Assembly (NCBI RefSeq): GCF_001622165.1
Contig: NZ_LVWG01000035.1
Coordinates: 20,566-84,565, forward strand
Length of the DNA stretch: 64,000 nt
Direction of reading: 5' to 3'
From: Pelodictyon luteolum
GTDB taxonomy: Bacteria; Bacteroidota; Chlorobiia; Chlorobiales; Chlorobiaceae
Below the pieces are notes generated by a model. It saw nothing but the letters and a program-made list of their open reading frames with translations, had not been told where the DNA came from and ran no database searches. Position 1 is the first letter of the stretch, and every line of letters starts with the position of its first letter. The translations under genes and the position numbers were made by a program. Of this stretch, positions 2,351-46,848 are shown one piece after another.

Positions 2351-3298
2351 ATGCAGACCTGCATCACCGATTCAGCCGAGGAAGCAGCCAGAATCCTCAA
2401 CGCCGGAAAGATCGTCGCGTTCCCCACTGAAACCGTTTACGGGCTCGGAGCCGGCATCGATTTTCCTGAAGCGGTTGAAGGGTTATTCCGGGCAAAAGGC
2501 CGACCCTCCGACAACCCGCTCATCGTACACGTCAGCAGTGTCGAACAGGTGGAGATGGCAGCAGCCAGGGTCACAACGGACGCACGGCGACTGATGGAGG
2601 GTTTCTTCCCCGGGCCGCTCACCATCGTCTTCCCTAAAAGCCCGAGGGTGCGCCATTCGGTCACGGCAGGGCTCGAGACCGTCGGAATCCGCTGCCCCCG
2701 CCATCCCGTAGCCCGCCTGTTCCTCTCCCGCTGCTGCTGCCCTGTCGCAGCGCCTTCAGCAAACCGCTCGGGCCGCCCCAGCGCAACCACATGGGAAGCT
2801 GTCAGGGAAGACCTCGACGGCCGCATCGACGCCATCCTCAAGGGGGAACCGAGCCGGATTGGCCTTGAATCGACCATAGTAGACTGCACCGGCCCTCACC
2901 CCGTCATGCTGAGAGCCGGAGCTGTCAGCCTGGAAGAACTGCAGAGCATCGTGGCGTCAACCACCGCCGCCCGCCCGTTGGAAGAGGGAGAAACCCCGAA
3001 AAGCCCGGGACTGAAATACCCCCACTACGCACCGGAAGCCGAAATCATCCCGATCGAGAAAGGAGATATGCCCTCTCCAGAAGGACGCGCTGCATATATC
3101 GGAACCGCGCCGCCACCGAGAGGCATGGCATTCGTCGAGCAGTGCATTGACCTTGAAACATACGCACGGAGCCTCTTCCACTTCTTCAGGGAGTGCGACC
3201 GCCGGGCAATAAGCACCATCTACTGCGAACTGCCCCCGACGGCCGGCATCGGCCGCGCCCTTCTTGACCGCATCAAGCGCGCAGCAGGGCACAAGTAA
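2351..3298 (+). CDS. sua5: L-threonylcarbamoyl-AMP synthase, Sua5 type (YrdC plus SUA5 domain)
   Basis: VAFPTETVYGLGA, KGRPSDNPLIVH, AAPSANRSGRPS, SPGLKYPHYAP. Confidence 0.95.
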   Translation: MQTCITDSAEEAARILNAGKIVAFPTETVYGLGAGIDFPEAVEGLFRAKGRPSDNPLIVHVSSVEQVEMAAARVTTDARRLMEGFFPGPLTIVFPKSPRVRHSVTAGLETVGIRCPRHPVARLFLSRCCCPVAAPSANRSGRPSATTWEAVREDLDGRIDAILKGEPSRIGLESTIVDCTGPHPVMLRAGAVSLEELQSIVASTTAARPLEEGETPKSPGLKYPHYAPEAEIIPIEKGDMPSPEGRAAYIGTAPPPRGMAFVEQCIDLETYARSLFHFFRECDRRAISTIYCELPPTAGIGRALLDRIKRAAGHK

Positions 3299-5353
3299 TC
3301 AGAACGTCCACAGGCAACCGACATGCAGCGAAGCCGGAGAGTCCGTACTGCGCAGGTCGGAACCGCTGCTGTAAACATCCCTGTCGGTATACGTCGTAAC
3401 CTCATAGCGAGCCGCAAGATTCAGGTTCGCTTCAGCTCTCCAGGCAGCAAGGAAAAACATCGATTTTCCCCGTCCGTTGTATGCTCCGAGGTCGAACTGC
3501 ATCGGAAGACCATCCTCATATGCATAGATCTGCGCGTCGGAGCTGTCGGTATTGAACACGGTTCCGCGCCACTTCAGGCTGAGCCTTCCGGTGGCATAGT
3601 TCAGCTGTTCATAGACCAGCCAACCGTTGTAGGAACTGGGGGCTGCATAGTACTCCTTCGAAACCCGCTTGAGTTCGCCGCGGGTACGGGTACTGAACCC
3701 TTTCAGCACTTTCAGGTCGCAATCAAGCCGGATCCTGTCCGTCACGACTGGCAGCGGGGCATAGCCAGCGACACAGTCCTCCCCACCAGTGGCACACTGT
3801 GCAGATGACGCCTCCTCCTTCTCTTTGTGCTGCAGCTGCATCGTCCATGTGAGGGTTGGTGAAGCCTTCCACACCGTAAACAAACGCATATCCTGCCCCT
3901 CCGAAGGGTAGGGATAGTATGCGGGACTCAGAAGCGGAAAACGAAACCAGTCGAAGTACGCACCAACCTGTACCCGCCGGCTCAGTTTCGCATCGATGCC
4001 GACATAATAACCCTCTTCGTTCATCGCATTGTCAGCCCGTTCGGCAAACGCCCCGGCAAAAGGAGAATAATAGCGGTCCCCGTAGTTGCGCACTGCCGCT
4101 ACCGCACTCACCCCGTGCAGCGGCTCGTATGATACGCCGCCGATCCATGAAGCCGCTTCGGGCTTTTGGGAAAAGGCCGCTTCCATGAACATCCCGAACT
4201 TTCCGGACGCAAGAGCGGCCTCAAGACCCACGAGATCGCCTGAAGAGGCTTCGTCAGGAGAAAAACCGGCGTCAACCAGCGACTCCAGCGGCTCGGAATA
4301 CCGGTAGTGGACCATGCTTGCACCAATCCGCCCGTTCACTCCGGGAGCGCTGAAGTTCCATAAAAGGTTGGCGCCAGAAGCCTCCTCCCGCACCCCGTCC
4401 TGACGGGAAATCTCCAGTTCCGTGCGATGGTAGCCCGACTCGTCAAAACTGGTGATGAGCTCAAGATCACTGACTCTTCCATCCACGCGGTTGGAGGCGG
4501 TGAACGCCGTAACCTCGAAATCACCGGGCCGAAGGGTTGCCGCCGCACCCTGCAGGAACCCGTACTCGGCGCTCGAACTATAGGGCGAAAGTCGCCGGGA
4601 ATGCAGCCGCACGCTTCCGGCAGGATCGGAGCCTTTTGAAAAATACCGGTTCTGGCCCATCAGAAGTCCTTCACCGAAATTGAGGGTGTAGTTGCCGACA
4701 ACGGCGCTTTTGACGATGCCGATGTCGTAAGCATTGAGGCTGAAGGAGGTGAAGTCGTCAAGGTCCGGCTCCCCCACGTCCTTTTCCTGAACCACGCTAG
4801 CCTTCAGGTGCGGGATGGCAAGCTGAAAGCGATTGTAGAGTTTATAATTGTCGCCCTCATAATCACCGATCGTGATGCCCTGCCGCTCGGGCATTTCAGT
4901 ATAGTAGCGACTGTAGAAGGATCCTTCGATCTGGTCGCGGAGAGCCTCCCGACGCAGCATGAGGTCCTTTTCAAAGACAATGTAGGGGATCATCCGCGCG
5001 GCCTTCTCCCTGCCGACGAGGGCAGCGAGGTCCGATTCGTTGCGGATGGGAGTCCTGCGGCGAGCGGAGAGAATAGTCTGGGCGTCGGTGTTCGTCAGCC
5101 AGGGCAGCTGGAGCAGGTCTTCGGCTGTAGCTTCATTCAGCGGGATCTTCTGCCGTTTAAGATCGGCAAGGTCTTCAAGGAGGGGTTCAAGGTTGCCCTC
5201 TGGTTCGAGGGCACCGAAGACGGACTCAAGCTCGTCCGAATCAGCGGCTTCGGCTGCCTCAGGCGGCCGGGCCAGAAGCACGATGAAAAGATAGCCGGCC
5301 ATCACCCGCATGGCGTGACCGTTTTCCCTGTTGTGAAAAAGTCTCATTGCCAT
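3299..5353 (-). CDS. ComEA-like helix-hairpin-helix domain fused to a probable outer-membrane beta-barrel
   Basis: N-terminal hydrophobic segment; IPLNEATAEDLLQLPWL HhH_3-like motif; beta-strand-like body; C-terminal aromatic end (LWTF). Start uncertain (5353, 5347 or 5311). Confidence 0.7.
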   Translation of the reverse strand: MAMRLFHNRENGHAMRVMAGYLFIVLLARPPEAAEAADSDELESVFGALEPEGNLEPLLEDLADLKRQKIPLNEATAEDLLQLPWLTNTDAQTILSARRRTPIRNESDLAALVGREKAARMIPYIVFEKDLMLRREALRDQIEGSFYSRYYTEMPERQGITIGDYEGDNYKLYNRFQLAIPHLKASVVQEKDVGEPDLDDFTSFSLNAYDIGIVKSAVVGNYTLNFGEGLLMGQNRYFSKGSDPAGSVRLHSRRLSPYSSSAEYGFLQGAAATLRPGDFEVTAFTASNRVDGRVSDLELITSFDESGYHRTELEISRQDGVREEASGANLLWNFSAPGVNGRIGASMVHYRYSEPLESLVDAGFSPDEASSGDLVGLEAALASGKFGMFMEAAFSQKPEAASWIGGVSYEPLHGVSAVAAVRNYGDRYYSPFAGAFAERADNAMNEEGYYVGIDAKLSRRVQVGAYFDWFRFPLLSPAYYPYPSEGQDMRLFTVWKASPTLTWTMQLQHKEKEEASSAQCATGGEDCVAGYAPLPVVTDRIRLDCDLKVLKGFSTRTRGELKRVSKEYYAAPSSYNGWLVYEQLNYATGRLSLKWRGTVFNTDSSDAQIYAYEDGLPMQFDLGAYNGRGKSMFFLAAWRAEANLNLAARYEVTTYTDRDVYSSGSDLRSTDSPASLHVGCLWTF

Positions 5354-43509: not shown

Positions 43510-44826
43510 TCAAGATAACAGTCTCGCATGTAATTGCAAACCATCGCCGAGCCCCTCAACCCTTACCGGCAGCTCTCTTCCGGCAAGCGGCTCTCCGCCG
43601 GCGGCAGCGGGCACGACGACCCTCAGATACTCGGGAGTGTAGCCGCTGAATCCCTCTTCAAAGAGCACCATCTGCTTGCTGCCTATCCGGGAGAGTGCGA
43701 ACGTGCGGGCCTTCCGCTCCCCAAGTTCGACGAGCAGTGCACTCCGCCGGGCAGCCTCCTTCGGGCTCACCCTCTCCCGTTCACCATCGGCAACCTGTCG
43801 CTGGAGAAGGGTACCGGGACGAACCGAACAGCTGAAGACATGGAGGTAGCTGAGCGGAAGCTCTCCGATGAAGCCATACATCGCCTGAAAATCCCCCTCC
43901 TCCTCGCCAGGGTACCCCACCATCACATCGGCACCAACCGCACACCCCGGGAGAACATCATGCAAAGAGTGCACCGCACGGCGATAATCATCGGTCGTGT
44001 AGCGCCGGCGCATTGCCTTAAGCACGGAGTCCGAACCGCTCTGGAGCGGCAGGTGGAAGTGCGGGACGATCCTCTCTGATGCGCCAACGACCCGGAGCAG
44101 GTCCTCATTCAGCATATCGGGCTCGAGGGAACTGATGCGGATGCGCGACACCGGCACATCCTCGAGCATCCGGAGAAGAGCGGCGAAATCCACCCCCCGG
44201 CTCAGGTAATCCCCGGTATTGACCCCGCTGAGCACGATCTCCCGGTACCCCGAATCGGCAAGCCGGCGGGCCTGGCGAAGAACCTCTTCGGGTTCGATGG
44301 AGCGAGAACGCCCCCGTGCGAGAGGAATAGTGCAATACGCACACATGTAGTCGCACCCGTCCTGAATTTTCAGGAACGCCCGTGTCCGACCCGAGCCTGG
44401 CGGGAGGGAACACCCCGGAGAGGCCGTACGGAGACGAGACAACGGCCCTGCGGCCACTGCCGGCAGAGCGGACCTACCAGCCTCAGCAACCGCCAAATAG
44501 CGATCAAGCTCGAACTTCTCTTTGTTGCCGAAAACCGCATCCACACCCTCAATCCCCCCGAGCACCTCGGGACTCAGCTGGGCGTAGCAGCCGATCACCG
44601 CAACCCGGCTGTGTGGATTGCGGCGGATGAGGCGCCTGATTTTCTGGCGGCACTTCTGTTCAGCCTGCCCCGTGACCGCGCAGGTGTGAATGATTAAGAG
44701 ATCTGCGCCCTCTTCGGGACCGCACGCCTCCCAGCCCCCATCAACAAGGCTCTGGAGGATGGAGGATGATTCTGCGTAGTTCAGCTTGCAGCCAAGCGTC
44801 ACCGCCGCAACTTTCTTTTTACTCAT
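43510..44826 (-). CDS. mtaB: tRNA t6A37 methylthiotransferase
   Basis: TLGCKLNYAES, HTCAVT, KIQDGCDYMCAYC..P.ARG, LHVFS. Confidence 0.92.
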   Translation of the reverse strand: MSKKKVAAVTLGCKLNYAESSSILQSLVDGGWEACGPEEGADLLIIHTCAVTGQAEQKCRQKIRRLIRRNPHSRVAVIGCYAQLSPEVLGGIEGVDAVFGNKEKFELDRYLAVAEAGRSALPAVAAGPLSRLRTASPGCSLPPGSGRTRAFLKIQDGCDYMCAYCTIPLARGRSRSIEPEEVLRQARRLADSGYREIVLSGVNTGDYLSRGVDFAALLRMLEDVPVSRIRISSLEPDMLNEDLLRVVGASERIVPHFHLPLQSGSDSVLKAMRRRYTTDDYRRAVHSLHDVLPGCAVGADVMVGYPGEEEGDFQAMYGFIGELPLSYLHVFSCSVRPGTLLQRQVADGERERVSPKEAARRSALLVELGERKARTFALSRIGSKQMVLFEEGFSGYTPEYLRVVVPAAAGGEPLAGRELPVRVEGLGDGLQLHARLLS

Positions 44827-44865
44827 GATGTTTCACAACCATTACGACAAGAACTCTATAACAAA

Positions 44866-44930
44866 CCAATTACGACCCAATTACGATCCCATAATGATCC
44901 CATATGATCCAATAACGATTCGATAACCAT
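44866..44930. repeat. Array of six degenerate ~11-bp direct repeats (CCAATWACGAT)
   Basis: CCAATTACGAC CCAATTACGAT CCCATAATGAT CCCATATGAT CCAATAACGAT TCGATAACCAT; a further partial copy at 44839-44848. Confidence 0.75.
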
Positions 44931-45010
44931 TCAGCTGCCACTAGCCCACCGTATAGCAACGTTAAAGAAACACAAAAAAACAGCACTGCACCTGCGACAC
45001 GATACACCAT
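44870..45010 (-). CDS. Possible 46-aa single-pass membrane protein
   Basis: MVYRVAGAVLFFCVSLTLLYGGLVAAEW...; the C-terminus is read from the repeat array, so it may be spurious. Confidence 0.3.
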   Translation of the reverse strand: MVYRVAGAVLFFCVSLTLLYGGLVAAEWLSNRYWIIWDHYGIVIGS

Positions 45011-45123
45011 GAACACAATAACTGAATATGATTGAGCAATATTCCCTTGCAGACAAAATTGCATTCTTCTATATTTCGTTTGTCCATTGACAACATATTC
45101 CACGAACAATAATCATAGACACT

Positions 45124-45570
45124 ATGGCACAGGATGTAACATCACCGGATAAATATGATCGCTTCATTCAGAAAATCGATCATTTCCAGTCGCTGGTTGA
45201 AGAGAAAAAGAACCTGCAGGCAAAAATAGCACAGATGCGGGATGAGTTCAATGCAACAATCCGCCCCCTCGAAAACGATCTGGCCGGCATCATCCGCAAT
45301 CTTGAAACCAACCTGTCGCGCCTGGAAAGCGGCGCTCCCGTGAAAGCCAGCTCCCCGAGGATTTCACGCGGACAGCTCGGCACCGCCGTAAAGGACCTGC
45401 TGCGTGCACATCCAGCAAAAGCCTTCAAGCCGAAAGAGATCGGCGATGCACTGGGAACTACAGGTGGCGCCTTCAGCGTCTGGTTCAACAAATACGGTGT
45501 GCATGACAACGACATCGAACGTATTCCTACCGGCAAGGAAGGCAAACGGTTCCTTTACAAAATCAAGTAA
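45124..45570 (+). CDS. Hypothetical protein: N-terminal coiled coil plus basic winged-helix-like C-terminal domain
   Basis: Heptad-like residues ~15-68; C-terminal AVKDLLRAH-PAKAFKPKEIGDALG-FSVWFNKY-ERIPTGKEGKRFLYKIK. Confidence 0.8.
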   Translation: MAQDVTSPDKYDRFIQKIDHFQSLVEEKKNLQAKIAQMRDEFNATIRPLENDLAGIIRNLETNLSRLESGAPVKASSPRISRGQLGTAVKDLLRAHPAKAFKPKEIGDALGTTGGAFSVWFNKYGVHDNDIERIPTGKEGKRFLYKIK

Positions 45571-45590: not shown

Positions 45591-45618
45591 GAAAAAGCGC
45601 GCTTCTGTGCGCTTTTTC
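45591..45618. terminator. Bidirectional terminator between the hypothetical gene and rodA
   Basis: GAAAAAGCGC-GCTTCTGT-GCGCTTTTTC. Confidence 0.75.
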
Positions 45619-45621
45619 TGT

Positions 45622-46848
45622 TCAGTAGCCGAGGTTGCGCTTATTATGGAAAAAGTTGAGAGCCAGGCCAACCATGATCATATTCCCGACAAGCGAAGAT
45701 CCCCCATAAGAAATAAACGGAAGCGGCACGCCGATGACAGGAATAAGACCAAGCGTCATGCCGATGTTGATGATGACATGAATCAGAAGCAATGAAACAA
45801 AACCGGCAAGCGTCAATTCGACAAAACGGTTTTTGATTGAAAAGATAGCCCAGATGAGGCGAAGCGTGAGGGCGGCGAACAGCATGATCAGCAACGCCGA
45901 ACCGATGAAGCCGAACTCCTCGGCAATGACACAGAAAATGAAATCCGTCCACTGTGCCGGAATGAAGCGCAGCTGGGTCTGGGTCCCCTCAAGAAATCCC
46001 TTTCCAAACAGCCCTCCCGAACTGATTGCAATCTTTGCCTGCAGCGCATTATAGCCCGCTCCCTGCGGGTCCGACATCGGGTCAAGGAAGGTCTGGATCC
46101 TTTTCATCTGGTGCGGCTTGAGGATCTCACCGGCAAACCGGTGCACAAACAACCCTGCAGCGAGACCCGAACCAACCACGGCGAGCTGATGTGGCTTGAA
46201 CCCCTGCTTCTGCACCATCATCGCCGCAAGCAAAAGCACACTGAGCCCCACGACAAACCATACGCTGAAAAAACCTGTCAGGAGGAGAAGCAGGGGTACG
46301 ACGAGGATCATAAGGATGTAGATGTCGAACCCCGCCATGATGATCATCGGCGCAATGAAGGAAAGGGCGGTCAGGGTGGTGCCCATGTCCGGCTGCAGCA
46401 TGATGAGCACTGCGGGAAAGATCGGTATGGCAAGGGCTGTCAGAAGATGCGGAAGGGAATGGATGTCGGTCTCGTCGTCTGAGAGGAAGCGTGCGAGAGC
46501 GAGAATGGTGGCCATCTTGGCGATCTCGGAGGGCTGGAAACTGAAGAGCCCTATCCGCACCCAGCTGGTCTGGCCGGCGATCTTTCTGCCGAAGATCAAT
46601 ACCGCAACAAGCATCAGCATGCCAAGGATGTAAAAGATGTAGGAACCATCCTTGATGACACGCACATCGTTGAAGTAGACGAACATCATCGCTACCACCC
46701 CGACAAGCGCCCAGGTCAGCTGACGATAGAAAAGCGTGGTATCGCCCGACCCGTTCGTCGCGCTGTAGACCGCCATGAGCCCGAACACCACAAGTCCGGC
46801 GAGCGGTCCCAGAAGCCAGTAATCAACTCCATGCTGTTTCATCATCAC
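45622..46848 (-). CDS. rodA: Rod shape-determining protein RodA (SEDS)
   Basis: [43 protein letters not shown]. Confidence 0.96.

Follow-up and report, generated by a model that had tools for sequence, protein, structure and literature searches.

In the 64,000-nucleotide stretch of the Pelodictyon luteolum genome analysed in this work (contig NZ_LVWG01000035.1, positions 20,566 to 84,565; hereafter the window), a small stand-alone gene on the plus strand (45124..45570, stop codon 45568-45570 included) encodes a protein of 148 amino acids (aa), the ortholog of Chlorobaculum tepidum CT0291, which is annotated as hypothetical. The open reading frame (ORF) was confirmed from the ORF list and its translation. 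We give a probability of roughly one half to the reading that this protein is a lineage-specific nucleoid-associated DNA-binding protein or silencer, working like the H-NS/MvaT/Lsr2/Rok class and unrelated to its members. A non-homologous protein of the H-NS/Rok type is favoured because architecture and charge asymmetry fit the H-NS-like class and because the losses of the gene are concentrated in lineages that carry H-NS. With somewhat less confidence, we propose that the protein might found a new family of H-NS-type xenogeneic silencers and DNA-bridging proteins without homology to the known ones, put together from a kinked coiled coil and a MarR-like winged helix with an Arg-Gly arm for the minor groove; as the ancestral silencer of the Chlorobiaceae, it might have been displaced in several Chlorobium lineages after horizontal acquisition of H-NS.

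Protein architecture and family assignment

The H-NS-like class is defined by an oligomerisation domain, a flexible linker, a DNA-binding domain and an asymmetric charge distribution (PMC6936261), and the same tripartite plan is seen in the AlphaFold2 (AF2) models of the 148-aa protein. In the full-length model, built on an alignment of 37 sequences (mean predicted local distance difference test score, pLDDT, 82), a long amphipathic N-terminal helix, presumed to be the dimerisation or oligomerisation module (residues 10-68, 45151..45327, plus strand; pLDDT 89-97), is followed by a flexible linker (residues 69-81, 45328..45366, plus strand) that is predicted as disordered, with pLDDT below 50 for residues 70-76. 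The C-terminal part forms a basic winged helix-turn-helix (HTH) domain (residues 82-147, 45367..45564, plus strand) with three helices (82-95, 103-110 and 114-125) and a beta-hairpin wing (131-136/142-147), and reached a pLDDT of 88.5 and a predicted template modelling score of 0.76 when it was modelled alone. A preliminary description of this DNA, made from the sequence alone, had proposed an N-terminal coiled coil, a linker and a Lys/Arg-rich helix-helix-helix-wing domain, and the models bear out all three parts. The charge is asymmetric as well: across the 37 members the N-terminal part is acidic (median charge -2, isoelectric point about 5.2) and the C-terminal domain is basic (median charge +7, isoelectric point 10.1), with a net charge of +6 for the C-terminal domain of the protein studied here.

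Conserved residues are found in each part of this plan. In the helix, hydrophobic residues follow a 3-4 spacing that is interrupted by heptad breaks near the invariant K28 and P48, and D9, K10, D12, D19, F21, L31 and L60 are the other invariant residues of the N-terminal region. The linker is rich in Gly, Ala, Pro and Ser, varies in length, accumulates indels in the alignment and ends in a conserved K-x-G/S-R-G arm, of which R82 and G83, placed just ahead of helix 1, are invariant. Among the invariant residues of the C-terminal domain, S118, N122 and K123 sit in the recognition helix and R133, G140, K141 and R142 in the wing; W120 and Y145 complete the set. At the beginning of the recognition helix (residues 112-117, 45457-45474) the window's protein reads TTGGAF, whereas TKGTxV stands there in at least 90% of the orthologs; T and G take the place of the nearly invariant K113 and T115, and the contacts with DNA may be altered in this species as a result.

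The search for relatives of the protein led to no known family. Models of Pfam, NCBIfam, PHROG and PADLOC gave no match beyond coiled-coil noise and generic HTH similarities below threshold (Terminase_5, HTH_23, Homeodomain), and for helix 10-68 Pfam gave coiled-coil noise only. No Rok, H-NS, MvaT or Lsr2 chain was found in a PDB profile search at E<=10; the RecA matches that appeared there were discarded as meaningless, being six matches of about 4 bits summed over concatenated RecA chains. The H-NS model PF00816 matched neither the protein nor anything else in its genome, and a profile-profile comparison (hhalign) of the 148-aa protein with the H-NS proteins of Chlorobium gave a probability of 7%. 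We also considered that the N-terminal helix might be homologous to the N-terminal domain of H-NS, which would allow hetero-oligomers; such a relationship was not found by profile comparison. Lsr2 (PF11774) was detected in 0 of 61 Chlorobiaceae genomes, that of the window included, with a positive Corynebacterium control. The MarR models PF01047 and PF12802 did not match the protein, and they are missing from the set of 25 families to which most of the 37 members showed matches.

The homologs of the protein are confined to the Chlorobiaceae. A search of a set of 5.8 billion proteins returned 96 clusters at E<=6e-38, all from this family, and a profile search over 5.8 billion proteins gave no further orthologs outside it; a phmmer search over 1.84 billion representatives returned Chlorobiaceae orthologs, about four representatives at 50% identity. 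The 74 named loci belong to Chlorobium, Chlorobaculum and Prosthecochloris, and the gene is absent in the sister families and the remainder of the phylum. Weak extra matches were to repeated HTH_23 modules and to actinobacterial winged helices of the MarR/TrmB type. In other Bacteroidota, RNase R was matched weakly (E 4e-6 to 9e-4) by way of its N-terminal winged helix (for example locus L114, G264:C4, ORF 2512-4746); this is a generic winged-helix resemblance, the whole proteins not being homologous. The family is undescribed and clade-restricted, and its plan is a variant within the H-NS-like class. Rok, Lsr2 and MvaT are likewise lineage-specific in their own clades, a pattern into which, by analogy, the 148-aa orphan would fit.

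Rok of Bacillus subtilis, a xenogeneic silencer with the winged-helix domain WH_Rok (PF23159, PDB 5ZUX/5ZUZ), is the closest counterpart in layout. Both proteins have an N-terminal coiled-coil region (in the 148-aa protein a predicted site of oligomerisation), a flexible linker and a C-terminal winged helix, and each has a small gene that stands alone, is restricted in its lineages and is dispensable in some of them. They differ in that they show no sequence kinship, that the neutral Q-rich linker of Rok is missing in the 148-aa protein and that no plasmid-borne short version comparable to sRok was found for the 148-aa gene; moreover, binding of AT-rich DNA has been shown by experiment for Rok, which has an N-T-R triad for the minor groove, whereas the 148-aa protein is known from its sequence and models. 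The term Rok-like used in the preliminary description therefore holds for the domain layout of the Rok/H-NS class and fails for kinship: PF23159 gave no match in the whole genome at E<=1 (the B. subtilis control passes the cut-off) and was not among the Pfam matches of the protein at E<=10, and Rok was absent from the 50 best Foldseek matches in PDB, for the full-length and the domain-only models alike.

With H-NS, MvaT and Lsr2 the protein shares the tripartite plan, with its acidic N-terminal and basic C-terminal parts, and the K-x-G-R-G arm beside its DNA-binding fold recalls the Q/RGR hook for the minor groove. Two separate oligomerisation sites are conjectured, and the heptad breaks at K28 and P48 would be compatible with them. 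Unlike in these proteins, however, the DNA-binding domain is a winged helix and has neither the H-NS nor the Lsr2 fold.

The winged helix itself introduces the first alternative. All of the 50 best Foldseek matches in PDB, with the full-length and the domain-only models, are winged-helix proteins of the MarR/ArsR type, and the best of them are the DNA-binding lobes of MarR, MepR, SarZ, PcaV and SlyA (template modelling scores 0.6-0.71, root-mean-square deviation 2-3 A over about 64 residues). The protein might be a dimeric transcription factor that recognises a specific sequence and controls a small regulon, in which the coiled coil merely dimerises; it would probably be autoregulated and could act on the promoter of the divergent neighbour mtaB or on a trait specific to the Chlorobiaceae, its losses in some Chlorobium lineages would mirror the disappearance of the regulated trait, and shared ancestry or ecology would have produced the link with H-NS as a by-product. 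We judge this less likely than the favoured reading, but regard it as its main and a serious rival. That the nearest structures are winged helices of MarR-family regulators, and that the putative base-contacting residues are invariant family-wide, as for a conserved specific target, speaks for it. The likeness ends at the lobe, however, since this lobe alone superposes: in the MarR family the winged helix lies between N- and C-terminal dimerisation helices that form the ligand pocket, whereas in the 148-aa protein, which departs from the MarR build, it hangs free at the C-terminus, joined by a disordered tether to the one long helix that precedes it, and there is no ligand-binding domain in the protein. 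MarR members of the SlyA type also act at AT-rich promoters silenced by H-NS.

Conservation, recurrent loss and the link with H-NS

The 148-aa gene is real and is under purifying selection, with a median pairwise ratio of non-synonymous to synonymous substitution rates (dN/dS) of 0.11 (0.12 in the helix and 0.07 in the winged helix). It is present in 85 of 122 Chlorobiaceae genomes. The protein tree gives the same supported clades as the tree of the neighbouring RodA, and this congruence argues that the gene is ancestral to the Chlorobiaceae and has been inherited vertically at one locus.

Genomes lacking the gene have rodA followed directly by mtaB, both intact, and in most of them the gap measures 5-82 bp. 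Since gaps and junction sequences differ from genome to genome, the losses must be regarded as separate clean deletions. Two more genomes hold a frameshifted or truncated copy; both are metagenome-assembled, so that an assembly error is possible. In a gene-less Prosthecochloris lineage (G082/G290, loci L031 and L032) the gap between rodA and mtaB is 288-369 bp long and full of unrelated short tandem repeats (GGTAATA x9, GTTGATTTGTTGA.., GGTCCTATA.. and TTCACGA x3).

The preliminary description knew of no such silencer in green sulfur bacteria. This is true of the window's own genome, but 47 of 122 Chlorobiaceae genomes, 45 of them Chlorobium, encode the H-NS domain PF00816 with scores over the Pfam cut-off, in one to four copies each. 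These proteins, about 100 aa long, contain a coiled coil in their N-terminal part together with the motif YRKSxxETWVGRGPKPxWV, and on account of size, coiled coil and motif they are regarded as true short members of the H-NS family. Their genes stand at several ordinary chromosomal loci, by trpB, an LptF/G-like permease, a tail-specific protease and an RlmI-like methyltransferase (examples: L127, at G094:C1:554509-554616, L117, L120, L124 and L125). About 1 kb from the H-NS gene of L124 (G142:C12) lies a 91-aa Lys/Ala-rich ORF (approximately 2577-2849, minus strand) with histone-H1-like repeats (AKPAVKTEAKADAKAEKKAPKKAVKK...). The Chlorobium H-NS proteins and the 148-aa protein share one bacterial family, are similar in size, combine an N-terminal coiled coil with a basic domain for DNA binding at the C-terminus and are encoded by stand-alone chromosomal genes. 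Their sequences are unrelated, however, and H-NS differs from the 148-aa gene in being nearly confined to Chlorobium, at several loci and in one to four copies, with a largely complementary distribution.

Among the high-quality genomes, H-NS is encoded by 22 of the 24 without an intact copy of the 148-aa gene, compared with 15 of the 68 that have one (odds ratio 39, Fisher p 1.8e-9), and at least one of the two genes is present in 90 of 92. The mean number of H-NS copies per genome is 1.76 without the 148-aa gene vs 1.06 with it (p 0.002). The losses were reconstructed on a maximum-likelihood tree of RodA from 90 genomes under a loss-only assumption. Ten independent losses or degradations were obtained, and in nine of the ten H-NS was already present at the parent node, although, of the branch length at risk, only 22-35% belongs to H-NS-positive lineages (binomial P 8e-6 to 6e-4, the range reflecting how ambiguous nodes are resolved). 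In these nine cases the sister lineages that retain the 148-aa gene are H-NS-positive as well. From the state of the parent nodes and of the sisters it follows that the gain of H-NS preceded the loss of the gene. The simplest account of losses concentrated in H-NS-bearing lineages is that the job of the 148-aa protein overlaps that of H-NS, and the evolutionary pattern suggests that the two are interchangeable.

The same data bear on the transcription factor alternative. That nine of ten independent losses fell on an H-NS-positive background is hard to put down to chance, and no co-inherited target gene was found; mtaB and rodA, the genes on either side, are unchanged after deletion of the gene.

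The locus and its regulatory region

The 148-aa gene lies between a divergent mtaB-like gene for a radical-SAM methylthiotransferase (ORF 43510..44826, minus strand, start codon at 44826; Pfam UPF0004 and Radical_SAM on the ortholog) and a convergent gene of the rodA/ftsW family (ORF 45622..46848, minus strand, stop codon at 45622-45624; FTSW_RODA_SPOVE on the ortholog), after which era follows. This gene order is kept in 79 of 91 loci, the remaining loci being cut by contig ends, and the position between mtaB and rodA holds even for the most divergent ortholog (45% identity). An exception to the fixed synteny is a metagenome-assembled genome resembling Prosthecochloris (L013/L063, G050:C31), where era follows the gene on the opposite strand and rodA lies beyond, a local rearrangement. 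A RodA with 95% identity to the one encoded in the window occurs in another genome of the same genus. CT0291 is unmentioned in the literature searched, including the supplement to the paper on the vesicle proteome of C. tepidum.

The fixed place of the gene beside rodA, its neighbour in every genome, might suggest an adaptor of chromosome segregation or cell division by which DNA is anchored to the machinery of elongation or division, like RacA, MatP or Noc, and the invariant polar residues D9, K10, D12, D19 and K28 indeed resemble a specific protein-protein surface. One automatic annotation of the Joint Genome Institute names an SMC-interacting protein, a name best explained by generic coiled-coil similarity. 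We regard this function as improbable. The gene is convergent with rodA and a terminator lies between them, so that they do not share a transcript; deletion of the gene, which has been lost some ten times, leaves rodA and mtaB intact, and the association with H-NS does not fit such a role.

The transcription signals of the 148-aa gene point to an autonomous, monocistronic transcription unit, as both promoter and terminator are conserved. In the window, a predicted RpoD-type promoter lies at 45047..45075 on the plus strand (-33 box TTGCAG at 45047-45052, a spacer of 17 nucleotides, -7 box TATATT at 45070-45075), from which a transcript start near 45082 and a leader of about 40 nucleotides are predicted. 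The element shared by the orthologous loci is TTGCA(G)-N17/18-TATATT, about 50 nucleotides ahead of the start codon; in the form TTG-N16-18-TATATT it was found in 74 of 77 distinct upstream regions, and its position is the same in each of the 22 loci that were aligned by hand. The TTGCAG-N17-TATATT of the window also fits the RpoD consensus of C. tepidum obtained by differential RNA sequencing, TTG-N17-23-TA[ATC][ATC][AT]T (bioRxiv 10.1101/172254). A scan gave a second match on the plus strand (45087..45116), composed of the perfect TTGACA (45087-45092) pointed out in the preliminary description, 18 nucleotides and AATCAT (45111-45116). The hexamer is present and consensus-like, but it was rejected as a functional promoter because it is not conserved: the matching positions of the orthologs hold unrelated sequence, and the conserved promoter is the TTGCAG-N17-TATATT element. 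At the other end, an intrinsic terminator common to the gene and rodA (45591..45619) consists of an A-tract, a GC stem with a TTCT loop and a T-tract, RNAfold giving a 12-pair stem at 45591-45618 (GAAAAAGCGCGC-TTCT-GTGCGCTTTTTC). With its hairpin flanked by an A-tract and a T-tract, it is considered bidirectional, and the same element, AAAAAGCGC...GCGCTTTTT, occurs in 22 of 22 orthologous loci examined. The preliminary description of a stand-alone gene with its own terminator is thus upheld, hairpin and T-run lying between its stop codon and that of the convergent rodA.

As had also been noted there, the region upstream of the gene is AT-rich. The divergent intergenic region between mtaB and the 148-aa gene (44827..45123, 297 bp) has a GC content of 0.37-0.42 vs 0.57-0.64 in the flanking genes. 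The upstream regions of all orthologs are AT-rich too (0.25-0.39), and most are 165-200 bp long compared with the 297 bp found here. In the subgroup of promoters that have a spacer of 17 (for example L003, L006, L008 and L015) an AT-rich inverted repeat, AATAT(C)...(G)ATATT, brackets the -33 box, its centres about 21 bp apart at what corresponds to 45038-45063 of the window; the window's own promoter and those of the Chlorobaculum type lack it. For some members of the family this repeat could serve as an operator; alternatively, it may have arisen by chance in AT-rich sequence. For a transcription factor, the inverted repeat around the -33 box would be a welcome operator in part of the family, and a divergent arrangement with a neighbour gene is common among regulators. 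The repeat is of low complexity, however, and is missing from the window and from the Chlorobaculum-type promoters, which weakens its value as support for that alternative.

On the mtaB side of the intergenic region, outside the conserved unit, Tandem Repeats Finder detected an imperfect tandem repeat with a unit of 10-11 bp (44866..44932). The preliminary description had offered, as its second proposal, a relic centromere-binding adaptor acting on this array. A mobile-element relic of this kind, such as a centromere-binding or partition adaptor, would draw on the presence of the array 190 bp upstream of the gene and on the weak similarity of the HTH to terminase/HTH_23-type and phage HTH domains. 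Neither the closest relative nor any other orthologous locus compared has the array, and arrays of this sort occur genome-wide: in the whole genome (2.15 Mb) 254 short tandem arrays were counted, among which periods 12 (77 arrays) and 11 (22 arrays) stand out sharply, and the array beside the gene is one of about 100 of short period. Their units are unrelated, for example CCGTCACTCCAT x11.5 (arrays lie, for instance, at C13:43030-43167 and C21:55251-55323). As a binding site of the protein the array was accordingly rejected. No partner of the ParA/TubZ type was found, nor any homolog on plasmid or phage records or in PHROGs, and the gene is chromosomal, with fixed synteny, a tree congruent with that of RodA and a dN/dS of 0.11 that speaks of vertical inheritance under purifying selection. 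A relic of a mobile element is therefore hardly credible, and the proposal is rejected.

Proposed mechanism and significance

From the fold we infer DNA binding and oligomerisation, and further a preference for AT-rich DNA and silencing, as follows. The N-terminal helix would form dimers and probably higher oligomers, and, as in MvaT, two interaction sites could be set apart by the heptad breaks at the invariant K28 and P48. Contacts of the tethered winged helices with DNA would be made by the recognition helix (S118, N122, K123), the basic wing (R133, K141, R142) and the Arg82-Gly83 arm, which could enter the narrow minor groove of AT-rich DNA. Oligomers might then coat or bridge AT-rich DNA, the promoter region of the gene itself included, and dampen transcription. 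Where horizontally acquired H-NS does a similar job, the 148-aa gene would become expendable. The genome of the window has a GC content of 56.3% and 15 islands of 1-9 kb below 45% GC, which could be horizontally acquired regions and are possible targets of the protein; since H-NS is absent from it, the 148-aa protein would be the only candidate of the H-NS-like class in this genome.

Several observations weigh against the view of the protein as a silencer or nucleoid-associated protein. By Foldseek, its winged helix is closest to sequence-specific regulators of the MarR type. Apart from the core promoter, the upstream regions of the orthologs yielded no motif that could be defined as an operator or an AT-rich target, and no homologs were found on plasmid or phage records, where H-NS and Rok have paralogs. 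Both the 148-aa gene and H-NS are held by 17 genomes, and the lone exception among the ten losses, the Prosthecochloris lineage G082/G290, has neither. Relaxed selection beside H-NS was not found (omega 0.09 in H-NS-positive vs 0.12 in H-NS-negative genomes), which argues against simple full redundancy, since redundancy predicts relaxation; the strong purifying selection on copies that coexist with H-NS speaks at the same time for a transcription factor. The association with H-NS rests on the tree of one gene, RodA from the adjoining locus, and on the loss-only assumption, and it could be brought about by a hidden correlate, such as ecology or a higher gene turnover in the H-NS-positive Chlorobium clades.

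To our knowledge, xenogeneic silencers come from few unrelated families (H-NS, MvaT, Lsr2 and Rok), and none has been assigned in most phyla. Each of the known families was found by experiment in a model organism. The 148-aa protein is an orphan with the construction of a silencer, and its evolutionary history reads as if it were interchangeable with H-NS. If this reading is true, the protein would represent a new silencer family and give the Chlorobiaceae a candidate for chromosome organisation or silencing that is tractable in C. tepidum, whose genome lacks H-NS and where CT0291 offers a direct genetic test. It would also constitute a natural and replicated case of one silencer family replacing another, and the phyletic signature, repeated loss after gain of H-NS, could serve to find silencer analogs in other lineages. 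Should the protein prove to be an ordinary regulator, it would still be a conserved, clade-defining DNA-binding protein of ecologically important phototrophs.

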